Assembly: GCF_003018255.1 (NCBI RefSeq)
Contig: NZ_CP027440.1
Strand: one strand, 5' to 3'
DNA: 64,000 nt
DNA from: Escherichia coli
Lineage (GTDB): Bacteria; Pseudomonadota; Gammaproteobacteria; Enterobacterales; Enterobacteriaceae
Shown: piece by piece, positions 1,696-33,390 of the stretch
How positions within the stretch are numbered: the stretch's first letter is position 1
Layout: every line of letters starts with the position of its first letter
The notes under the pieces: generated by a model
Databases searched by the model: none
What the model was told of the DNA's origin: nothing
Seen by the model: only the letters and a program-made list of their open reading frames with translations
Translations under genes and position numbers: made by a program

Positions 1696-3348
1696 ATGAA
1701 ATTATTGCAGCGGGGCGTGGCGTTAGCACTGTTAACCACATTTACACTGGCGAGTGAAGCTGCTCTGGCGTATGAGCAGGATAAAACCTACAAAATTACA
1801 GTTCTGCATACCAATGATCATCATGGGCATTTTTGGCGCAATGAATATGGCGAATATGGTCTGGCGGCGCAAAAAACGCTGGTGGATGGTATCCGCAAAG
1901 AGGTTGCGGCTGAAGGCGGTAGCGTGCTGCTACTTTCCGGTGGCGACATTAACACTGGCGTGCCCGAGTCTGACTTACAGGATGCCGAACCTGATTTTCG
2001 CGGCATGAATCTGGTGGGCTACGATGCGATGGCAATCGGTAATCATGAATTTGATAACCCGCTCACCGTATTACGCCAGCAGGAAAAGTGGGCAAAGTTC
2101 CCGTTACTTTCTGCCAATATCTACCAGAAAAGTACCGGCGAGCGCCTGTTTAAACCATGGGCGCTGTTTAAGCGTCAGGATCTGAAAATTGCCGTTATTG
2201 GCCTGACGACGGATGACACAGCGAAGTTAGGCAACCCAGAAAACTTCACCGATATTGAGTTCCGTAAGCCCGCCGATGAAGCGAAGCTGGTGATTCAGGA
2301 GCTGCAACAGACAGAAAAGCCAGACATTATTATCGCGGCGACCCATATGGGGCATTACGACAATGGTGAGCACGGCTCTAATGCACCGGGCGATGTGGAG
2401 ATGGCACGCGCGCTGCCTGCCGGATCGCTGGCGATGATCGTCGGTGGTCACTCGCAAGATCCGGTCTGCATGGCGGCAGAAAACAAAAAACAGGTCGATT
2501 ACGTGCCGGGTACGCCATGTAAACCGGATCAACAAAACGGCATCTGGATTGTGCAGGCGCATGAGTGGGGCAAATACGTGGGGCGGGCCGACTTTGAGTT
2601 TCGTAATGGCGAAATGAAAATGGTTAACTACCAGCTGATTCCGGTGAACCTGAAGAAGAAAGTGACCTGGGAAGACGGGAAAAGCGAGCGTGTGCTTTAT
2701 ACCCCTGAAATCGCTGAAAACCAGCAAATGATCTCGCTGTTATCGCCGTTCCAGAACAAAGGCAAAGCGCAGCTGGAAGTGAAAATAGGCGAAACCAATG
2801 GTCGTCTGGAAGGCGATCGTGACAAAGTACGTTTTGTACAGACCAATATGGGGCGGTTGATTCTGGCAGCACAAATGGATCGCACTGGTGCCGACTTTGC
2901 GGTGATGAGCGGAGGCGGAATTCGTGATTCTATCGAAGCAGGTGATATCAGCTATAAAAACGTACTGAAAGTGCAGCCATTCGGCAATGTGGTGGTGTAT
3001 GCCGACATGACCGGTAAAGAGGTGATTGATTACCTGACCGCCGTCGCACAAATGAAGCCAGATTCAGGTGCCTACCCGCAATTTGCCAACGTTAGCTTTG
3101 TGGCGAAAGACGGCAAACTCAACGACCTGAAAATCAAAGGCGAACCGGTCGATCCGGCGAAAACTTACCGCATGGCGACATTAAACTTCAATGCCACCGG
3201 CGGGGATGGCTATCCGCGCCTTGATAACAAACCGGGCTATGTGAATACCGGCTTTATTGATGCCGAAGTGCTGAAAGCGTATATCCAGAAAAGCTCGCCG
3301 CTGGATGTGAGTGTTTATGAACCGAAAGGTGAGGTGAGCTGGCAGTAA
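1696..3348 (+). CDS. ushA: UDP-sugar hydrolase / 5'-nucleotidase (periplasmic)
   Basis: 550 aa, signal peptide, metallophosphoesterase motifs (DHHG, GNHEFD). Confidence 0.95.
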   Translation: MKLLQRGVALALLTTFTLASEAALAYEQDKTYKITVLHTNDHHGHFWRNEYGEYGLAAQKTLVDGIRKEVAAEGGSVLLLSGGDINTGVPESDLQDAEPDFRGMNLVGYDAMAIGNHEFDNPLTVLRQQEKWAKFPLLSANIYQKSTGERLFKPWALFKRQDLKIAVIGLTTDDTAKLGNPENFTDIEFRKPADEAKLVIQELQQTEKPDIIIAATHMGHYDNGEHGSNAPGDVEMARALPAGSLAMIVGGHSQDPVCMAAENKKQVDYVPGTPCKPDQQNGIWIVQAHEWGKYVGRADFEFRNGEMKMVNYQLIPVNLKKKVTWEDGKSERVLYTPEIAENQQMISLLSPFQNKGKAQLEVKIGETNGRLEGDRDKVRFVQTNMGRLILAAQMDRTGADFAVMSGGGIRDSIEAGDISYKNVLKVQPFGNVVVYADMTGKEVIDYLTAVAQMKPDSGAYPQFANVSFVAKDGKLNDLKIKGEPVDPAKTYRMATLNFNATGGDGYPRLDNKPGYVNTGFIDAEVLKAYIQKSSPLDVSVYEPKGEVSWQ

Positions 3349-3355
3349 TCCGAAA

Positions 3356-3379
3356 GTGCCGGATGTTCGCATCCGGCAC
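3356..3379. terminator. GC-rich hairpin between convergent ushA and ybaK, likely bidirectional terminator
   Basis: inverted repeat gtgccggatg-ttcg-catccggcac read directly. Confidence 0.45.
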
Positions 3380-3384
3380 AATGC

Positions 3385-3879
<495 letters not shown>

Positions 3880-5731: not shown

Positions 5732-8236
5732 TTATTCCTTCGGTTTAAACCGCAGCAACCGGTTGGCGTTACTCACTACGGTAATCGACGAGAGCGCCAT
5801 TGCCGCTCCGGCGACCACCGGGTTAAGCAGCGTACCGGTGAACGGCCACAAAATACCGGCGGCGACCGGAATACCAATGCTGTTGTAGATAAACGCACCG
5901 AGCAGGTTCTGCTTCATGTTGCGCAGCGTTGCGCGGGAAATTGCGAGCGCATCCGCAACACCCATCAGGCTATGGCGCATCAGGGTAATCGCCGCGGTTT
6001 CAATGGCAACATCACTGCCGCCACCCATCGCAATACCGACATCCGCCTGAGCCAGCGCTGGCGCATCGTTAATGCCGTCGCCCACCATTGCTACCTGACG
6101 TCCTTCACTTTGCAGACGTTTGATCGCTTCGGCTTTACCGTCTGGCAGCACGCCGGCTATCACCTCATCAATCCCTGCTTCTTTAGCGATCGCATTGGCG
6201 GTGGTCGGGTTATCCCCGGTTAGCATCACCAGGCGATATCCCGCTTTATGCAGGCGTTGCAGCGCCGCCACGCTATCACTACGCAACGGATCGCGTACAG
6301 CCAGCAGGGCTACCGCTTTCCCGTCAACCGCCAGCAGCACAGGCGTTGCCCCTTGCGATGCCTGAGCTGAAATATCTGCTTCAATTGCTTTGGTATCGAC
6401 CTGTTGGTCATTTAACAGCGCCTGATTACCCAGCAATACCGCATGACCTTCAGCTTCACCGCTCACACCCAGCCCGCGCAATGTGCGGAAACCGTTGACC
6501 TGCGGCAGCTGCATATCACCTGCTTTATCGAGGATCGCCCGTGCCAGCGGGTGGCTGGAACCTTGCTCCAGCGCCGCCGCCAGACGCAGCGCCTGCGCTT
6601 CATCAACATCAGCAAATGTTTTTACTGCGACAACCTGCGGCTTCCCTTCGGTCAGCGTCCCGGTTTTATCGAACACCACGGTGTCGAGCGTACTGGCGCG
6701 TTGCAGCGCGTCGGCGTCCCGCACCAGCACGCCAAACTCAGCCGCCCGCCCGACGCCCGAAATAATCGACATCGGCGTCGCCAGTCCCAGCGCACACGGA
6801 CAGGCGATAATCAGCACCGTGGTGGCAATCACCAGGGTATAAACAATTTGCGGTGCCGGGCCAAAGAAATACCAGATTGCCGCACTGACCAGCGCAATGA
6901 CTACCACCACCGGCACAAACACAGCGGAGATTTTATCCGCCAGTTGACCGATTTCTGGCTTGCTGCTCTGGGCCTGTCGCACCATGCGAATGATCCGTGA
7001 CAGCGTAGTATGGCTGCCGACCGCACTGGCGCGAAACAGCACACTGCCGTCCTGTACCACTGTCCCGGCATGGACGCTATCGCCTTCGCCTTTTTGCTGC
7101 GGGATTGGTTCGCCCGTCAGCATCGCTTCATCCAGCCACGCTTCGCCCTGGGTAATTTCACCATCTACCGGCACCCGATCACCCGTCGTCAGGCGCAGCA
7201 ACATACCTGGCTGAACATCTGCCAGCGGCACGTTTTTTTCACCTTCGTTGGTGACCAGGCGCGCCGTCGGTGGGGTTAAATCGAGTAATTTCTCCAGCGC
7301 CTTAGAAGAACGCTGACGTGCGCGCGCTTCCAGCATATGACCGAGATTAATCAGACCGATAATCATCGCACTGGCTTCATAGTAAAGATGTCGCGCTTCC
7401 ATCGGGAACCACTGCGGCCACAGGTTGACGCTCATTGAATAGAGCCACGCCACGCCCGTACCCAGCGCCACCAGCGTATCCATCGTCGCTGCACCGTTCA
7501 GCAGGCTTTTCCATGCGCTGCGGTAAAAATGGCCGCCGGCGAAAACCATTACCGCCAGGGTTATCAGGCCGATAACCAACCACAGGCTGCGGTTGTCGGC
7601 GGTGACCATCATGTTATCGCCGATCATCCCCCAGACCATCACCGGGATACCCACCGCCAGTGCGACAATCGCCTGCCAGCGGAAGCGCTTCATCGTAGCG
7701 ACGGCGGTTTCTTGCTGGCGCTCGCGGCGTTTAGCGTCATCTTCAATCGCTTCCGCGCCGTAGCCCGCTTTTTCCACCGCCTGCACTAAATCTTGTGGGG
7801 AGGCACTGCCCATCACCAGCGCAGTACGCTCCGCCAGGTTTACCCGTGCCTGAGTGACGCCCGGTACGCTTTGCAACGCATTTTGTACGCGGGTGACACA
7901 GCTGGCGCAGCTCATGCCGCTCAGCAGCAACTGCTGGCTGTCATCGTCATCGGCGGTCGCTGCCGGAAGCGCCTCAGAAACCGCTGTCAGTGCTTCCGAC
8001 GGGATTGATGACTCCGCCAGCGGTTTAGCCTTTGGGTGGCTTACAGATGCGTCATAACCCGCTTGTTTGATGGTTTCGATCAGCTGTTCTGCACTGGCAG
8101 TCCCGGTAACGTGCGCTTCAGTGACAGACACATCCGCCTGCTCAACATCCGGGCGCTGTTCGAGACTTTCTTTCACGCGTTTAACGCAGTGACCGCAGGA
8201 CAGGCCGTCCAGGGTCAGGTCGATAGTTTGTGACAT
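5732..8236 (-). CDS. copA: Cu(I)-exporting P-type ATPase
   Basis: 834 aa, two N-terminal GxxCxxC metal-binding domains, CPC motif, DKTGT phosphorylation motif. Confidence 0.97.
8030..8036 (-). other. slippery heptamer C_CCA_AAG at copA codons 67-69, site of programmed -1 frameshift giving the CopA(Z) chaperone
   Basis: heptamer located by frame arithmetic from the copA start; function from literature. Confidence 0.55.
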
Positions 8237-8284
8237 AAAACACTCCTTTTAAGACAGTTTTGACTGGCTGTGATAAAGGTTAAA

Positions 8285-8303
8285 CCTTCCAGCAAGGGGA
8301 AGG
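8285..8303 (-). promoter_or_regulatory. CueR operator inside MerR-type copA promoter (19-bp spacer)
   Basis: dyad ccttccagcaaggggaagg between ttgacc (-35) and taacct (-10) on the copA strand. Confidence 0.75.
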
Positions 8304-8498
8304 TCAAGAAATTAATAAACCAGGCGGGTAAAAGTCCGTAAAGATTAAAAAATCGGCTCGATTTGCATCAGGATTAGACATTTATCTCTTTGTTTTCCTG
8401 TAGTTAAGTTGCGGGTGCTAAGTTAAATCAGGATGCCTGAAAATTGGCACCGGGGTGAGGAATTACCTCCCGCATCTATAAAAAGGAGTTAACAAAAG

Positions 8499-9431
8499 AT
8501 GTTAGATGCAAACAAATTACAGCAGGCAGTGGATCAGGCTTACACCCAATTTCACTCACTTAACGGCGGACAAAATGCCGACTACATTCCCTTTCTGGCG
8601 AATGTACCTGGTCAACTGGCAGCAGTGGCTATTGTGACCTGCGATGGCAACATCTATCGCGCGGGTGATAGTGATTACCGCTTTGCGCTAGAATCCATCT
8701 CGAAAGTCTGTACGTTAGCCCTTGCGTTAGAAGATGTCGGCCCGCAGGCGGTACAGGACAAAGTTGGCGCTGACCCGACCGGATTGCCCTTTAACTCAGT
8801 TATCGCCTTAGAGTTGCATGGCGGCAAACCGCTGTCGCCACTGGTAAATGCTGGCGCTATTGCCACCACCAGCCTGATTAACGCTGAAAATGCCGAACAA
8901 CGCTGGCAGCGAATTTTACATATCCAACAACAACTGGCTGGTGAGCAGGTAGCGCTCTCTGATGAAGTCAACCAGTCGGAACAAACAACCAACTTCCATA
9001 ACCGGGCCATTGCCTGGCTGCTGTACTCCGCCGGATATCTCTATTGTGATGCAATGGAAGCCTGTGACGTGTACACCCGTCAGTGCTCCACGCTCATCAA
9101 TACTGTTGAACTGGCAACGCTTGGCGCGACGCTGGCGGCGGGTGGTGTGAATCCGCTGACGCATAAACGCGTTCTTCAGGCCGACAACGTGCCGTACATT
9201 CTGGCTGAAATGATGATGGAAGGGCTGTATGGTCGCTCCGGTGACTGGGCGTATCGCGTTGGTTTACCGGGCAAAAGCGGTGTAGGTGGCGGTATTCTGG
9301 CGGTCGTCCCTGGCGTGATGGGAATTGCCGCGTTCTCACCACCGCTGGACGAAGAAGGCAACAGTGTTCGCGGTCAAAAAATGGTGGCATCGGTCGCTAA
9401 GCAACTCGGCTATAACGTGTTTAAGGGCTGA
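8499..9431 (+). CDS. glsA: glutaminase 1
   Basis: 310 aa, serine-dependent glutaminase family, operon with ybaT. Confidence 0.9.
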   Translation: MLDANKLQQAVDQAYTQFHSLNGGQNADYIPFLANVPGQLAAVAIVTCDGNIYRAGDSDYRFALESISKVCTLALALEDVGPQAVQDKVGADPTGLPFNSVIALELHGGKPLSPLVNAGAIATTSLINAENAEQRWQRILHIQQQLAGEQVALSDEVNQSEQTTNFHNRAIAWLLYSAGYLYCDAMEACDVYTRQCSTLINTVELATLGATLAAGGVNPLTHKRVLQADNVPYILAEMMMEGLYGRSGDWAYRVGLPGKSGVGGGILAVVPGVMGIAAFSPPLDEEGNSVRGQKMVASVAKQLGYNVFKG

Positions 9432-23049: not shown

Positions 23050-23062
23050 TGAGAGTAAATAA

Positions 23063-23094
23063 GGGGCGTTCTGGTTGAATGGAACGCCTTGTTT
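23063..23094 (+). terminator. rho-independent terminator after ybbP
   Basis: hairpin ggcgttc...gaacgcc followed by ttgttt. Confidence 0.45.
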
Positions 23095-23477
23095 AAATTA
23101 ATTCTACAATATGTTTCATTGATGATGTTATTGAATTGGTGATTTCCTATCTTTCTATTGCTGATATTAATCTGAATCGGTGGAGTTTAATGATTTTAAA
23201 TATAGCCCTACAAAAATAACTCAGACTAATAAAATCATAAATCATATGCGTTGAATGGATATTATCCATATAGTGAATTTGTTGATAATGAATTCATCTG
23301 TGCTAAAAATGTTAGTTTAATAAAATATTGAAAGTGACCTGTAATAACAGTTGTTGTTGATTGAGAACAAATAAGTTTATGTGAAAAATATATAAATACA
23401 TTAGCTGGTCTTGTGTGTCATTTTATTTTTTTGTTGCTAACACAGGGATATGAACAATAACTAAAAGGGCACTTTAT

Positions 23478-24971
23478 ATGAGCGGAAAACCAGCGGCGCG
23501 TCAGGGAGATATGACTCAGTATGGCGGTCCCATTGTCCAGGGTTCGGCAGGTGTAAGAATTGGCGCGCCCACCGGCGTGGCGTGCTCGGTGTGTCCGGGC
23601 GGGATGACCTCGGGCAACCCGGTAAATCCGCTGCTGGGGGCGAAGGTGCTGCCCGGCGAGACGGACCTTGCGCTGCCCGGCCCGCTGCCGTTCATTCTCT
23701 CCCGCACCTACAGCAGCTACCGGACGAAGACGCCTGCGCCGGTGGGGATTTTTGGCCCCGGCTGGAAAGCGCCTTCTGATATCCGCTTACAGATACGCGA
23801 TGATGTACTGGTACTCAACGACAACGGCGGACGGAGCATTCACTTTGAGCCGCTGCTGCCGGGTGAGGCGGTGTACAGCCGCAGCGAGTCCCTGTGGCTG
23901 GTGCGTGGCGGTAAGGCAACGCAGCCGGACGGCCACACGCTGGCACGGCTGTGGGCGTCGCTGCCGCCGGATATCCGGTTAAGCCCGCATCTTTACCTGG
24001 CGACCAGCAGCGCACAGGGGCCGTGGTGGATACTGGGGTGGTCTGAGCGGGTGCCGGGTGCTGAGGACGTACTGCCAGCGCCGCTGCCGCCGTACCGGAT
24101 GCTTACCGGGCTGGCGGACCGCTTCGGGCAGACGCTGACGTACCGGCGTGAGGCCGCCGGTGACCTGGCCGGGGAAATCACCGGCGTGACGGACGGTGCC
24201 GGGCGGGAGTTCCGTCTGGTGCTGACCACGCAGGCGCAGCGGGCGGAAGAGGCCCGTAAACAGCACACCGCTTCCTTATTTTCCCCTGACACCCCCCGCC
24301 CTCTTTCAGACTCTGCGTTCCCCGACACACTGCCCGGTACGGAATACGGCCCCGACAGGGGCATCCGTCTTTCGGCGGTGTGGCTGATGCACGACCCGGC
24401 ATACCCGGAAAGCCTGCCCGGTGCGCCACTGGCGCGGTACACGTATACGGAAGCCGGTGAACTGCTGGCGGTATATGACCGCAGCAATACGCAGGTGCGC
24501 GCTTTCACGTATGACGCGCAGCACCCGGGCCGGATGGTGGGGCACCGTTATGCGGGAAGGCCGGAGATGCGCTACCGCTACGACGATGCGGGGCGGGTGG
24601 TGGAGCAGCTGAACCCGACAGGCCTGAGTTACCGCTACCAGTATGAGCAGGACCGCATCACCATCACGGACAGCCTGAACCGGCGAGAGGTGCTGCATAC
24701 AGAAGGCGGGGCCGGGCTGAAGCGGGTGGTGAAAAAAGAACTGGCGGACGGCAGCGTCACGCACAGCGGGTATGACGCGGCAGGAAGGCTCACGGCACAG
24801 ACGGACGCGGCGGGACGGCGGACAGAGTACGGCCTGAATGTGGTGTCCGGCGATATCACGGATATCACCACGCCGGACGGGCGGGAGACGAAATTTTACT
24901 ATAACGACGGGAACCAGTTAACGGCGGTGGTGTCCTTGACCCACGATATTCAGACAGTCGTTGTATCTTAA
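23478..24971 (+). pseudogene. rhsD: rhs (RhsD-like) N-terminal portion, interrupted by IS insertion
   Basis: MSGKPAARQGDMTQYGGPIVQGSAGV... Rhs N-terminus and YD-repeat core; frame runs into IS end and stops at 24971. Confidence 0.85.
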
Positions 24972-25849
24972 GTTGACGTTACCCGCTGACGTCGATATTC
25001 CCTTGGTGAGAGATAACCTAACGCACTATGCGGATGGGTTTCATTGTAATGCTCGATCGCCACTGCAAGGTTATGCAATGCCGTTCTTACATTCGGTTTC
25101 GGCATGAACGCGATGTAGTCTTCTTTCATCGTTTTCACGAACCTTTCTGCCATTCCATTGCTCTGAGGGCTACTGACTGCCGTTGTGCAGGGCTCCAGAT
25201 TCAACTCTCTGGCGAACTGCCGTGTTTCATGAGCTGTATAAGCCGAACCGTTATCAGTCAGCCACTGGATTGGCCGTTCCGCTCCTTTATCGCCAAAGCG
25301 TTTTTCTATTGCTCCTAACATGACATCCTGCACCGTTGCTTTGTCATAACCTCCCGTGCTTGCGGCCCAGTCTATGGCTTCACGATCGCAACAGTCCAGT
25401 GCGAACGTGACACGCAGTTTTGCGCCATCATCACAACCGAACTCAAAGCCATCGGAACACCAGCGCTGGTCGCTTTCCTTCACCGATATTCGGCCTTTAT
25501 GTTCCCGCTGCGGCCGTGAAGGTTTGTCATGTAACAACAACAGGTTATTTTCGCTCATTATCCGATAAACGCGCTTTGCATTCACGAACGGCACTCCTTT
25601 GTTACGGGACTGTCGTCTGAGAATGGCCCAGACACGACGATAGCCATATGTCGGCATATCGCTGATGATATCAAGGATACGTGCTAACACTTCCGCATCC
25701 GCAGCCTCATCACATCTGCGACGACGTTTATTCGGCTTATTACCAGATGTTTTCATCCGTTGTGCCAGTTGCGCACGCGACACGCCCAGAATACGGCTTA
25801 CCAGGGTTATTCCTTGTCCGTTGGCAACAAGGGCGCATGCGCTATCCAT
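24968..25849 (-). CDS. IS3-family transposase OrfB (DDE integrase core)
   Basis: 293 aa, recognised as IS2 InsD-like (recalled similarity). Confidence 0.85.
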
Positions 25850-26232
25850 TTTCGCGACTGACCATACTCCACCGCTTCTTTGAGGATCTCAACTTCCATG
25901 GTTTTCTTACCCAGCAAGCGCTGTAACTCTTTTATTTGTTTTATAGCGGCAGCCAGTTCTGAGGCAGGAACGACATCCTCTCCGGCAGCAACAGCAGTGA
26001 GACTTCCTTCCAGATATTGTTTTTTCCACTTAAACAACAGGCTGGGCTGAATACCATGCAAACGCGCCACATGGGACACCGTCATACCGGGTTCCATTGT
26101 CTGCTGAATAATGGCGATTTTTTCCTGAGGAGTTTTACGTTTACGAAGCTCCTGCCCCAGCAAAATTCCAGTCATCTCAAAATTAGCACTAGTAGACATA
26201 TATCCAAGCCTATCTCTTATTTTAAGATACAT
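25807..26232 (-). CDS. IS3-family transposase OrfA (HTH)
   Basis: recognised as IS2 InsC-like (...[10 protein letters not shown]...[13 protein letters not shown]...); overlaps orfB. Confidence 0.8.
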
Positions 26233-26263
26233 CCACTGTCTGGCGTTTCAAGGGGCCGGTTCA

Positions 26264-29038
26264 CAGTTAACGGCGGTGGTGTACCCGGACGGGCTGGAGA
26301 GCAGCCGGGCATATGATGAGCTGGACAGACTGGTATCGGAGACATCGCGCAGCGGGGAGACAGTACGCTACCGCTACGATGACGTGCACAGTGAGTTACC
26401 GGCGACGACAACGGATGCGACGGGCAGCACCCGGCAGATGACCTGGAGCCGCTACGGGCAGTTGCTGGCCTTCACCGACTGCTCGGGCTACCAGACCCGC
26501 TATGAATACGACCACTTTGGTCAGATGACGGCGGTCCATCGTGAGGAAGGCATCAGCACGTACAATACCTATAACCCGCGCGGCCAGCTGGTCAGCCGGA
26601 AAGACGCACAGGGCCGTGAAACGCGGTATGAATACAACGCCGCAGGCGACCTGACTGCCGTTATCACCCCGGACGGCAACCGGAGCGAGACACAGTACGA
26701 TGCGTGGGGAAAGGCGGTCAGCACCACGCAGGGCGGGCTGACGCGCAGTATGGAGTACGATGCTGCCGGACGTGTCATCAGCCTGACCAACGAGAACGGC
26801 AGTCACAGCGACTTCAGCTACGATACGCTTGACCGGCTGGTACAGCAGCGCGGCTTTGACGGGCGGACGCAACGTTATCATTATGACCTGACCGGAAAAC
26901 TCACGCAGAGTGAAGATGAGGGGCTTGTCATCCTCTGGTACTACGATGAATCGGACCGTATCACTCACCGCACGGTGAACGGCGAACCGGCAGAGCAGTG
27001 GCAGTATGATGGCCACGGCTGGCTGAGAGAAATCAGCCACCTGAGCGAAGGCCACCGTGTTGCCGTCCACTATGGCTACGACGATAAGGGCCGTCTGACC
27101 GGGGAGCGCCAGACGGTGGAGAACCCGGAGACGGGGGAACTGCTGTGGCAGCATGAGACGAAACAGGCATACAACGAACAGGGGCTGGCAAACCGCGTCA
27201 CGCCGGACAGCCTGCCGCCGGTGGAGTGGCTGGCCTATGGCAGCGGTTATCTGGCGGGCATGAAGCTGGGCGGGACGCCGCTGCTGGAGTACACGCGCGA
27301 CCGCCTGCACCGGGAGACGGTGCGCAGCTTCGGCAGCATGGCAGGCAATACAGCCGCATATGAACTGACCAGCACTTACACCCCCGCAGGCCAGTTACAG
27401 AGCCGGCACCTGAACAGCCTGGTGTTTGATTGTGACTATAACTGGAATGACAACGGCGACCTGATGCGCATCAGCGGCCCGCGACAGACGCGGGAATACG
27501 GCTACAGCGCCACGGGCAGGCTGGAGAGCGTGCGCACCCTCGCACCGGACCTGGACATCCGCATCCCGTATGCCACCGACCCGGCGGGCAACCGGCTGCC
27601 GGACCCGGAGCTGCACCCGGACAGTACACTCACAGTGTGGCCGGATAACCGAATCACCGAAGACGCGCACTACCTGTACCGTTACGATGAATACGGCAGG
27701 CTGGCGGAGAAGACGGACCGCATCCCGGCGGGTGTGATACGGACGGACGACGAGCGGACCCACCACTACCACTACGACAGCCAGCACCGCCTGGTGTTCT
27801 ATACGCGGATACAGCATGGCGAGCCACTGGTCGAGAGCCGCTACCTTTACGACCCGCTGGGCCGCCGGACGGGTAAACGGGTGTGGCGTCGCGGGCGTGA
27901 CCTGACAGGATGGATGTCGCTGTCGCGTAAACCGGAGGAGACGTGGTACGGGTGGGACGGCGACAGGCTGACGACGGTGCAGACTGACAGCACGCGTATC
28001 CAGACGGTGTACCAGCCGGGAAGCTTCACACCGCTCATCCGCATCGAAACAGACGTGACCGAACTGGAGAAAGCGCAGCGGCGGAGCCTGGCGGAGAAGC
28101 TCCAGCAGGAAGGGAGCGAGGACGGACACGGCGTGGTGTTCCCGGCTGAACTGGTGCGGCTGCTGGACAGGCTGGAGGAAGAAATCCGGACAGACCGCGT
28201 GAGCAGTGAAAGCCGGGCGTGGCTTGCGCAGTGCGGGCTGACGGTGGAGCAACTGGAAAAACAGGTGGAGCCGGAATATACACCGGCGCGAAAAGTTCAT
28301 CTTTACCACTGCGACCACCGGGGCCTGCCGCTGGCGCTTATCAGCGAAGACGGCAATACGGTGTGGAGCGCGGAGTATGATGAATGGGGAAACCTGCTTA
28401 ATGAGGAGAACCCGCATCATGTGTATCAGTCATACCGTCTGCCGGGGCAGCAGCATGATGAGGAGTCGGGGCTGTACTACAACCGGAACCGGTACTACAA
28501 TCCGTTGCTGGGACGATATATTACTCAGGACCCGATTGGGCTGGCGGGGGGATGGAGTCTGTATGCGTATCCGCTGAATCCGGTGAATGGTATTGATCCA
28601 TTAGGATTAAGTCCTGCAGATGTAGCGTTAATGCGAAAAAAAGAACAATTAAACCATCAAAGAGCATGGGATATATTATCTGATACTTATGATGATATGA
28701 AGAGATTAAATTTAGGTGGGACTGATCAATTTTTCCATTGTATGGCATTTTGTCGAGTGTCTAAATTAAATGACGCTGGTGTTAGCCGATCAGCGAAAGG
28801 GCTGGGTTATGAAAAAGAGATTAGAGATTACGGGTTAAATATGTTCGGTATGTACGGCAGAAAAGTAAAGTTATCCCATTCTGAGATGATTGAAGATAAT
28901 AAAAAAGACTTGGCTGTAAATGAACATGGGTTGACATGTCCATTAACACAAGATTGCTCAAATAGATGTATTGATTATATTAATCCAGAGCATAAAAAAA
29001 CGATAAAGGCTTTACAAGATGCTGGCTATCTCAAGTAA
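26264..29038 (+). pseudogene. rhsD: rhs C-terminal portion: YD-repeat core, DPxGL boundary, variable toxin tip
   Basis: reading frame resumes ...[14 protein letters not shown]... immediately after the IS; no native start codon. Confidence 0.85.
28610..29038 (+). other. Rhs C-terminal variable (toxin) domain, unrecognised family
   Basis: begins just after DPLGL (about 28595-28609); sequence turns abruptly AT-rich; His/Cys-containing ...[10 protein letters not shown]...[11 protein letters not shown]... Confidence 0.5.
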
Positions 29039-29048
29039 CATCTCAAAG

Positions 29049-29510
29049 ATGGTAATATTTATTTTTGCTATTATAATCGTTGTTTTTTTATGCGTGACTA
29101 CTTATCTTTATTTACACAAAGATGAATCTCTTGTAAGTAAGCATTACATAAACTATATGGCAATACCAGAAAGTGATGGGGTTTTTACATGGCTCCCAGA
29201 TTTTTTTCCGCACGTAGCGGTGGATATATCAATATCCACAAATGTAGAAGATGATTATTTTTTTTCTTATTTTTCCCTAACAATCGATGATGGGGGGAGG
29301 TTTAAGAAAACATTGACTGTGAGGGCCAGGGAACAAGTGGCGAAAATCGTATCAGAGAATGATCCAGATACAAAAAAAGTGTGGTGTAAATATGGTAAAA
29401 TACCAGGGCAAGGGGATAGCGTAAACCTTTTTTTTGTTGGTGAAATTAATGTTACGCATTATTTTATAACAAATATTGGAGCTGGGTTACCTGATGCTTG
29501 TGCAGAGTAA
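29049..29510 (+). CDS. putative Rhs immunity protein (hypothetical, N-terminal TM helix)
   Basis: AT-rich ORF directly after rhs stop; start taken at MVIFIF. Confidence 0.5.
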   Translation: MVIFIFAIIIVVFLCVTTYLYLHKDESLVSKHYINYMAIPESDGVFTWLPDFFPHVAVDISISTNVEDDYFFSYFSLTIDDGGRFKKTLTVRAREQVAKIVSENDPDTKKVWCKYGKIPGQGDSVNLFFVGEINVTHYFITNIGAGLPDACAE

Positions 29511-29877
29511 TTGCTTGAATTAAGAGTCTATCCCATATCGAAGTCGTCAACTTCGTAGTGAGGAAAAGTATAATCCCTGACTGAGAAAAGACATGTCGGC
29601 TATTGTGTAAAGCCATATAGCTCAGACGATGAATATCTACTCGTATTCAGTTGTTTATTGAGGGTGAGTTCCGACCCTGAAACAACAAATAAAATGAACA
29701 GCCAGAGAGTTTACATAGAATTGCACTGGTCTTTTACGATATCTGACATTGTGTAATACATATTCAGCCATGCATTAATTAAAATGTTACGTGTTTAATG
29801 TGAGTCCCTATCTGAAAATAAATAATCCTTCCGGATTAAAATAAATTCTCGCCGGGAAAGAAAGAGGAAATAAACCA

Positions 29878-29975
29878 TTAGCGGAAAACCAGCGGCACGC
29901 CAGGGTGACATGCCCCAGTACGGCGGCCCGATAGTCCAGGGTTCAGCGGGGGTACTGATAGTCGCGCCGACTGCA
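29878..29975 (+). pseudogene. orphan Rhs N-terminal fragment
   Basis: DNA near-identical to rhs 5' end (encodes ..PAARQGDMPQYGGPIVQGSAGV..) but ATG mutated to att. Confidence 0.5.
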
Positions 29976-30024
29976 TCGAGAACTCCATACAACTTTTTAC
30001 GGAACGTCACCTGATAAAATTTGT

Positions 30025-30432
30025 TCAGTATCGTCTTTTGAGATTCTCAAGGTTATGGAGTAACCAGACAGAACGGACACCACTGTCGGAGATAAAAACC
30101 CCCTGTTTACGCAGCTCGTTGCTGGCCCGGTGCTGACCATGTGTCGGGAAAGCGACGGCGTAATCAACAACAGCCTGTTCAATTGCCTCATCGGTACGGT
30201 TCTTAAGGTTAGGAGCGCGGCGACTACGATTAATCTGCGCATCCACACCGCCTTCAGCGGCCAGTTCGCGGTAACGATAAAACGTATCACGCGAAACGCC
30301 CATGATTTTACAGGCTTTTGATACGTTGCTGAGTTCTTCAGCCAGATTGAGCAAACCGGCTTTGTGTTTGATGACGGGATTGGCAGTATGAAGCATGAGA
30401 GTTACCTCTTGTTTTGGATAAGGATTCGACAC
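30025..30432 (-). pseudogene. transposase N-terminal (HTH) remnant
   Basis: 135 aa ORF with HTH transposase-like N-terminus (..ACKIMGVSRDTFYRYREL..) and no catalytic domain. Confidence 0.5.
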
Positions 30433-30511
30433 TCATATCAAAACCGGTAACTCTCAACCTTTCAAGGCCATGTGTCAGATCAAGTCGCGACTAATACAAA
30501 TACGTCCCTCA

Positions 30512-31621
<1,110 letters not shown>

Positions 31622-31674
31622 TCAAATCAGCTTGCGCGCTATTTTACGCGCCAACGCGCAAGGAAACTTGATTT

Positions 31675-32601
31675 TTAACTGCGTGGGTTGCCGAAAATTT
31701 CTAAAAATCCGCTGATTTCCGGCCTGCGCTGGGTAAACAAGGTCACAATATCTTCTATCGCTTTGCCGCTGCCAAATTTGCGCCATGCCAGACTCAATGG
31801 TGAAGGAGGGCGCATCGTTGGGATTACCCGGCTGACCAGTTGTTGATTATCGATCATTGACTGGCAAAGTGATTTTGGCAAAAAACCAATGCCAACGCCC
31901 GCCAGATGGGCGGCGATTTTCGTTTCCATATCGGGAACAATAATCTCTTTTTGCCCCGGCAATCGCCAGGCGACGCGTTTGGTTAGTGTGCGGGCGCTGT
32001 CTTCAATATTAACCGCCGGAAAGCGCCGCAACTGTGCTTCTGTTAGCGGCTCTTCAACGTTCGCCAGCGGATGATCCGCCGCCATGACAAAGCGCCATTG
32101 CACCGATCCTAAGGGATCAAGACTAAAGGTATTTGCCAGCGCCTCGGTTCCCGTGACGCCGATAGCCAGTGAAAAACCTTCGTATAATAGCGAATCCCAG
32201 ACGCCCATATAGATTTGTCGGGAGATGTGAAATTGGGTAAACGGGTAACGTTCATTTAGCCACGCCAGCAGCCTGGCAACGGCCTGAGGGTTATAGAGCA
32301 GGTTGTTGATGACGATATTCACCTGGCGTTCCACGCCATCATTCACCTGTTGTAACTCGCTGGGCATACTTTCCAGCCAGCTCAGCCAGTCTCTGGCCTG
32401 ACAAAGTAGATGCTCGCCAGCCGCCGTCAACGTCACGCTACGAGTCGTACGGAAAAACAGCGCTACTCCGGTATTCTCTTCCAGAAGTTTAATGCGATAA
32501 CTGATCGTCGCCGTGGTTTTACATAATCGTTCTGCCGCTTTTGAAAAACTTCCTGTTTCAGCAACCGCAATGAAAGTCCGCAAGGTTTCTGGATCGAACA
32601 T
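31675..32601 (-). CDS. allS: LysR-family activator of allantoin genes
   Basis: 308 aa, N-terminal LysR HTH, divergent from allA. Confidence 0.9.
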
Positions 32602-32708
32602 CTTCAGGTATCCCCTTTTAAATCCGCAAGTTGCGTGATTTTCTTATCCTCTGATTTATCAGTATTTTTACATGATAACCCTGTTCAATTTGTGGACTAA
32701 ATCTAGTT

Positions 32709-32725
32709 TTGGAAAAATATTCCAA
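32709..32725. promoter_or_regulatory. candidate AllR operator in allS-allA intergenic region
   Basis: dyad ttggaaaaatattccaa. Confidence 0.5.
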
Positions 32726-32830
32726 CTTTTGTATTGATGTTGTTCTCTTAAGGTTTTAGATTGCCTGTTATTGAAACCAAGCTGACCGGTCGGCGGTGGT
32801 TGAACGGAATTATGTTACAAGGACAAAGAG

Positions 32831-33313
32831 ATGAAACTTCAGGTATTACCGTTAAGTCAGGAAGCCTTTAGTGCTTATGGCGACGTAATCGAAACGCAGC
32901 AACGGGATTTTTTCCATATTAACAATGGTCTGGTGGAGCGTTACCACGATTTGGCGCTGGTTGAGATTCTTGAGCAAGACCGTACGCTTATCAGCATTAA
33001 CCGCGCGCAACCGGCGAATCTGCCGCTGACCCTTCACGAACTCGAACGTCATCCGCTGGGTACTCAGGCCTTTATCCCGATGAAAGGTGAAGTGTTTGTG
33101 GTGGTCGTGGCGTTAGGTGACGACAAACCAGACCTGTCAACCCTGCGGGCGTTTATTACCAACGGTGAACAGGGAGTGAATTACCATCGTAACGTCTGGC
33201 ATCACCCACTTTTCGCCTGGCAGCGCGTCACCGATTTTCTGACCATCGATCGCGGCGGCAGTGACAACTGTGATGTTGAAAGTATTCCTGAACAGGAACT
33301 CTGTTTTTCGTGA
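32831..33313 (+). CDS. allA: ureidoglycolate lyase
   Basis: 160 aa, conserved position. Confidence 0.9.
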
Positions 33314-33390
33314 CGCCTGCAACCGACTTGCATAAGATAAACGAATTGTTCATTGTTTATGCTCATTTGTAGGTCGGAGTTAACGTAGGT

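Follow-up and report, generated by a model that had tools for sequence, protein, structure and literature searches.

The pseudogenes ylbI and ylbG at the right-hand end of the Escherichia coli RhsD island as probable debris of a second rhs gene and IS481-type elements

Gene content of the locus

The sequence analyzed here, referred to as the window, is a 64,000-nt stretch of Escherichia coli DNA (contig NZ_CP027440.1, RefSeq assembly GCF_003018255.1). It represents the ybbP–rhsD–mnmH(selU)–all region, with the gene order ybbA-ybbP-rhs-ybbD-(pseudogene)-ylbG-mnmH-allS-allA-allR-gcl. A preliminary description had singled out positions 29878–30432 as an rhs start fragment lying beside a transposase remnant. 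The segment around them (29000–31000) was matched in 5,409 of the 5,426 complete E. coli genomes, at 100% identity in strain JNE23-011, and contains most of the features considered below (window coordinates).

23478–23572, plus strand: start of the resident rhs gene and other copy of the direct repeat; matches the RHS_core model NF041261 from position 1
29511–29860 (to 29876), no strand: AT-rich single-copy spacer from ybbD to the rhs stub; present in 2,874 genomes, only at the RhsD locus
29861–29876, plus strand: ribosome-binding region still preserved ahead of the dead rhs start, with AAGAGGAA 9 nt upstream of ATT
29877–29971, plus strand: rhs stub (ylbI), codons 1–32 with a PAAR-like N-terminus, ATG changed to ATT; defined by alignment to the resident rhs start
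29877–29972, plus strand: ylbI as annotated in K-12 (b4632, a 96-bp pseudogene); 96/96 identical to the K-12 sequence
29972–30040, minus strand: 69-bp scrap of an IS481-family transposase, codons 277–299, integrase-core region; 56/69 (81%) to CP056609 locus 3329–3397
30031–30396, minus strand: ylbG (b0502 in K-12, matched by position and order), IS481-family transposase codons 1–122, HTH region; NF033577 and HTH_29
30397–30498, minus strand: IS481-type 5′ untranslated end with terminal inverted repeat (~30473–30498); CP056609 locus 2399–2500

In sequence and in position between ybbD and mnmH/selU, the two remnants coincide with those of K-12, whose RhsD locus is annotated as rhsD-ybbC-ylbH-ybbD-ylbI-ylbG-selU and whose locus segment 7952–13001 is colinear with window 28330–33380 at 97%. 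By these matches, the flagged stretch is the long-annotated K-12 pseudogene pair ylbI/ylbG, which closes the RhsD island on the right, and is in that sense already known. The pair is alike in MG1655 and in the window strain in locus, order, orientation and junctions, with ylbI 100% identical; the feature itself does not differ between the two strains, whereas its neighborhood does, in the tip of the main rhs gene, in ybbD and in the IS2-like element that splits rhs here. PGAP labels the ylbI stub of JNE23-011 a partial pseudogene and calls both remnants pseudogenes in other strains; K-12 RefSeq now lists ylbG as a CDS, ‘putative DNA-binding transcriptional regulator’.

The main rhs gene (23478–29038) is split by an IS2-like element of the IS3 family (24934–26263), whose minus-strand ORFs at 24968–25849 and 25807–26232 match the NCBIfam IS2 TnpA/TnpB subfamily models below their cut-offs. 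The insertion is not found in JNE23-011, which has an intact rhs of 1,400 codons and is 98.8–99.2% identical over the locus. Flanking the element is a 19-bp direct duplication, CAGTTAACGGCGGTGGTGT (24915–24933 and 26264–26282), which is unusually long, the IS ends being approximate.

At its 3′ end (28330–29038), the main rhs gene carries the toxin tip that K-12 has only as the orphan pseudogene ylbH. The YbbD-family ORF is intact in the window (163 aa), whereas K-12 ybbD is a pseudogene, and a further module of ~945 bp, made up of an rhsD tip and ybbC, is inserted between the two in K-12 (window 28330–29510 vs K-12 locus 7008–9131). The difference in tip arrangement between K-12 and the window is textbook C-terminal displacement, or its reversal by core recombination.

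The ylbI stub derives from a diverged rhs lineage

Aligning the resident rhs start with the fragment, a check that the preliminary description had proposed, gives a clear repeat. The two copies (23478–23572 and 29877–29971) lie on the same strand, 6.4 kb apart, and align over 95–96 nt without gaps, in phase with each other from the start codon onwards. BLAST of the stub from another genome against the rhs start returned E-values of about 1e-16/1e-17, which places the similarity beyond chance, and the start codon is indeed mutated, reading ATT instead of ATG. The location given for the fragment, downstream of a presumed immunity gene, is likewise accurate (366 bp past the YbbD-family ORF at 29019–29510). 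The copy of the rhs 5′ end is therefore real, but the near-identity first reported for it is not: the stub agrees with 23478–23573 at 75 of 96 nt (78%; 79% across 95 nt), and the longest exact run shared with the resident rhs start is 17 nt.

Third codon positions hold 17 of the 21 nucleotide differences between the two copies. Eighteen codons differ, 14 of them synonymously, and 28 of 32 amino acids of the stub peptide are identical to the resident Rhs N-terminus. This predominance of synonymous change indicates that the stub comes from a different rhs lineage, which diverged under protein-level constraint before truncation. The earlier view of the fragment as a footprint of past rhs rearrangement survives in part: it is a relic of rearrangement at this locus, but the third-position bias indicates that it was not derived from the resident rhs.

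To the left of the start codon, the stub and the resident rhs share no similarity. The rhs gene in the tRNA-Asn island of ATCC 8739 remains similar to the stub for ~16 nt upstream of the start codon, through the Shine-Dalgarno-like AAGAGGAA, indicating that a genuine gene start is part of the stub. At the other end, rhs similarity reached 29971 and no further in all comparisons made. What is left of an rhs gene is the N-terminal PAAR-like region from the start codon (codons 2–32), with a weak PAAR_motif match (E 1.9e-4, under the Pfam cut-off). The stub has neither an intact start nor a long ORF with DUF6531, the YD-repeat shell and the RHS core motif, and in the place of a C-terminal toxin tip and then an immunity gene it is followed by the IS481 remnant and then mnmH.

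Comparison with other strains, also suggested at the outset, was informative. The fragment occurs at an identity of at least 95% in about 2,793 of 5,426 genomes (~half of E. coli), and the structure as a whole in ~2,800. Across the 5,426 genomes, the next best rhs start is that of ATCC 8739 (84%), with most at 79–82%, and a blastn search of all complete E. coli genomes with the 99-nt fragment returned no match between 95% and 84%.

Wider searches returned little else. Among 100,044 species-representative genomes, exact 26-mer matching hit one contig only, binned as Alistipes. A protein search with the 45-aa read-through ORF recovered the ORF itself at 98% and otherwise ordinary Rhs N-termini at ≤93%; it yielded no full-length Rhs with the P13/L27/V29 residues of the stub. 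No full-length rhs sharing the 5′ end of the stub was found in the genome collections searched, the best reaching 84%. The ylbI stub thus descends from another, once-functional rhs lineage, ~20% diverged from the resident rhs, and this lineage has no intact representative in the collections searched.

The contig hit by the 26-mer scan, CASFSC010000074.1 (3,995 bp, ‘uncultured Alistipes sp.’), matches the E. coli rhsD–ylbI–ylbG–mnmH region at 96%, and its Alistipes label is almost certainly a binning error.

Two IS481-type pieces adjoin the stub

The neighboring ORF had been described as a truncated, HTH-only transposase, and this holds. It runs from an ATG at 30396 to a stop codon at 30031–30033 (122 codons), matches Pfam HTH_29 (E 6e-20) and aligns with positions 2–112 only of the 284 in the NCBIfam IS481 transposase model NF033577 (87.9 bits; cut-off 224). 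The end previously assigned to the ORF, 30432, reflects a GTG upstream extension in the mechanical ORF call; ylbG proper begins with the ATG at 30396.

As a reference for the complete element, we used the full-length IS481 copy on the IncF plasmid pRHBSTW-00320_2 (CP056609), whose transposase has 346 codons. Window 30498–30032 corresponds to the IRL, leader and codons 1–122 of this copy at 95% nucleotide identity, and the outermost 26–30 nt of the remnant also align, inverted, with the other end of the plasmid IS. Between this proximal piece and the distal 69-bp scrap, ~463 bp of IS481 are absent, and everything after codon 299 is also gone.

The alignments of the proximal and distal pieces overlap by 9 nt, CAAAAGACG, a junction microhomology (~30032–30040), and the frame shift at this internal junction creates the stop codon of ylbG. 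At its other end the scrap meets the rhs stub at 29971/29972; since the end of one coincides with the end of the other, rhs and IS material are directly fused. The outer IS end (30498) lies 14 bp from the mnmH stop codon (30512–30514).

The two pieces have diverged from the plasmid copy in unlike ways. In ylbG, 11 codons differ nonsynonymously and 4 synonymously from the plasmid transposase, and the changes are spread evenly over the codon positions (5, 6, 4), a pattern of neutral decay. In the distal scrap, 9 of the 13 differences fall at codon position 3, and the scrap is more diverged than the adjacent piece (Fisher p = 1.3e-4). These contrasting patterns point to two source elements, and we infer that the two pieces come from different members of the IS481 family. 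The searched collections contained no close relative of the 69-bp scrap (best ≤84%), and the second IS481 end or the missing half of the element was absent throughout the window, including next to ybbP.

Relative to the plasmid IS481, the remnant retains the first 122 codons at 95% DNA identity and one of two terminal inverted repeats (at about 30473–30498), but the DDE (rve) catalytic core that should accompany the HTH region is gone, save for the 23-codon integrase-core scrap of a more distant family member. The remnant cannot transpose.

Two further IS481-type sequences came to light in these comparisons. The transposase gene in CP056609.1 (locus 2501–3541) lies between aar and aap (dispersin), with aggR further downstream; aar, aap and aggR are markers of enteroaggregative E. 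coli virulence plasmids. Window 30334–30495 also resembles, at 72–77%, a second IS481-type 5′-end remnant next to betA (e.g. NC_013654.1 326110–326271), which is present in many E. coli genomes, some of them without the RhsD island.

The spacer and the boundaries of the island

The only other relative of the spacer places it with the preceding genes. Its segment 29646–29828 has a counterpart, at 86.5% similarity, that follows an immunity-like ORF at the rhsE/vgrG locus of strain LR-28; the spacer therefore belongs to the toxin-tip/immunity module, as its tail, and not to the dead rhs gene. An alternative assignment of the spacer as an rhs upstream region was rejected on the same match.

The whole of 23056–30516 is missing from 1,854 of the 5,426 complete genomes, which have an unrelated ybbP–mnmH interval of ~710 bp in its place. 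In E. coli strain 104 (locus 1807–2517), REP-like repeats and a gene annotated as a dinQ-like type I toxin lie in this interval. Neither rhs nor IS481 sequence was present in the ybbP–mnmH interval of island-free genomes, and the 710-bp interval shows no similarity to 23056–30516.

Backbone identity is lost on the left 6 bp past the stop codon of ybbP and is again unambiguous from 30517, within the final codons of mnmH, on the right. The 18 bp from the IS end (30498) to 30517 have only loose similarity to the empty-site sequence, and the right edge of the island therefore coincides with the outer IS481 end to within 18 bp. At this boundary, the two mnmH alleles differ in the last sense and stop codons (CGA TAA vs CAG TGA).

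Origin of the debris

Three pieces are thus joined at the right edge of the island, namely rhs codons 1–32, IS481 codons 277–299 and an IS481 end with codons 1–122, through non-homologous junctions that are invariant in ~half of E. coli. Very probably they are non-functional debris: three truncated pieces brought together by illegitimate junctions, with a second rhs gene lost through deletions. Under this scenario, the rhs–ybbD module would once have been followed by a second rhs gene, whether at the present site or in a foreign donor. Deletions would then have removed nearly all of this second rhs together with most of the IS material, with probable end points at the 29971/29972 junction and at the 9-nt microhomology junction at roughly 30032–30040.

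For the route by which the pieces reached the locus, we lean towards a joint arrival of the stub and the IS scrap with the island, which is favored by the mainly synonymous differences combined with the lack of close relatives in E. coli. A more specific version is that the stub and the 69-bp scrap are fossils of a tandem rhs array in a foreign donor, with an IS481 relative of its own; this we advance tentatively, and the further suggestion that the stub is translated from AUU into a 45-residue PAAR-like peptide is less likely still.

Rhs loci are known to expand upstream, new modules being added ahead of the older ones that they displace (Jackson et al. 2009, PMC2935791). The stub could be an older, native rhs that an incoming rhs module pushed downstream and that an IS481 insertion and a deletion then wrecked, or alternatively the broken edge of an imported tandem rhs array. 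The retention of its own ribosome-binding site by the stub would fit displacement of a native gene, but the genomes free of the island have no rhs or IS481 sequence between ybbP and mnmH, and one and the same stub–IS junction recurs in all 2,700–2,800 genomes that carry the island, leaving no intermediate. Nor does the spacer in front of the stub help to distinguish the two, as it belongs to the ybbD module and equally fits a tandem array in a donor. We regard the account of a displaced native gene as possible but rather unlikely.

Expression and possible function

Searches for signals of expression gave little. No Rfam families were found in the region, promoter-like sites in 29400–30600 showed neither an excess nor a consensus, and the one terminator-like hairpin inside the stub equals the shuffle expectation. 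Published data place an RpoD holoenzyme site from genomic SELEX between ybbD and ylbI (PMC3946193) and an FNR-associated fragment from ChIP-chip under the label ylbI (PMC1802558), because of which some low-level transcription of the stub is conceivable. Most likely, the remnant has no function at present.

In some strains, the pair has been removed by a deletion mediated by IS3. Strain MSHS 472, which has ylbG and no ylbI, was considered as an ancestral form of the locus; this was rejected in favor of a derived, IS3-mediated deletion. In K-12, the ybbD–ylbG interval serves as a neutral landing pad for chromosomal integration (bioRxiv 10.1101/2020.01.04.894907).

Domestication of the remnants, with ylbG acting as an HTH-only regulator or transposition inhibitor and/or ylbI encoding a 45-residue peptide started at AUU, could account for the intact 122-codon ORF of ylbG and its CDS status in K-12 RefSeq. 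It would also find a place for the good Shine-Dalgarno sequence 9 nt upstream of ylbI, the RNA polymerase and FNR binding reported nearby and a 45-aa ‘hypothetical protein’ entry in nr. Against it, ylbG has accumulated 11 nonsynonymous and 4 synonymous changes evenly over codon positions, as in neutral decay; PGAP calls both remnants pseudogenes in other strains; IS3-mediated deletion removes them from some strains; and the interval is in use as a neutral integration site and has no promoter-like consensus across 29400–30600. A domesticated role is therefore very improbable.

The stub is an unsuitable recombination partner for the main rhs gene

The preliminary description further held that the fragment might remain able to drive recombination with the main rhs gene. 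Since the copies are direct repeats, such an event would delete the whole rhs locus, and none of the 3,209 complete genomes having these sequences shows the deletion product, in which the IS remnant would lie no more than 700 bp from the rhs upstream region. For RecA recombination to be efficient in E. coli, roughly 23–27 nt is usually cited as the minimum; with 78% identity and a 17-nt exact run below this minimum, efficient recombination between stub and rhs is unsupported. The fragment is identical in K-12, O157:H7 and the window strain, with no sign of gene conversion towards the resident rhs. From the alignments, the stub appears too short and too diverged to recombine with the main rhs at an appreciable rate, and is probably not an active partner.

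The sequences that actually serve as recombination substrates in Rhs loci are orphan fragments with long core homology (Jackson et al. 2009, PMC2935791). K-12 ylbH, whose counterpart in the window is the 3′ end of the main rhs (28330–29038), is one such core-homologous orphan. A search of the same paper for 5′ fragments or for a discussion of the RhsD locus found none.

Like the orphan modules, which Jackson et al. (2009, PMC2935791) explain by a model of C-terminal displacement and which include ylbH–ybbD in K-12 and the orphan rhs of Salmonella Typhimurium, ylbI is an rhs leftover in the same orientation downstream of a main rhs. Those modules, however, consist of a 3′ core fragment, a toxin tip and a cognate immunity gene, and it is the long, high-identity core shared with the main gene that permits recombination, whereas ylbI comprises just the first 32 codons at the 5′ end, lacks repeats, toxin tip and immunity gene, and has an identity of only 78%. 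Calling the fragment an ‘orphan’ Rhs was accordingly a misnomer, as it represents the wrong end of the gene, with no 3′ core and no toxin/immunity pair.

That the stub arose recently by duplication of the resident rhs 5′ end, when that gene was rearranged, and is still a live recombination substrate would suit two direct repeats on one strand, 6.4 kb apart and in phase from the start codon onwards, but it is close to untenable in the face of 78% identity with overwhelmingly synonymous differences (a sign of long divergence under selection), a longest exact run of only 17 nt, the expected deletion product in 0/3,209 genomes and an identical fragment in K-12, O157:H7 and the window strain, with no sign of conversion towards the resident rhs.

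Implications for the RhsD island

The question raised by the preliminary description is closed by these results: the fragment is a fixed, ancient and catalogued pseudogene and not a hidden destabilizer of the rhs locus. To the existing annotation, our analysis adds a distinct rhs lineage for the stub, the likely make-up of the ylbG remnant from two IS481-type scraps, and a boundary marker. The stub and IS scraps mark the right-hand boundary of an island that ~half of E. coli carry, while a third have the dinQ-like interval, and this boundary could help to reconstruct how Rhs islands were acquired.
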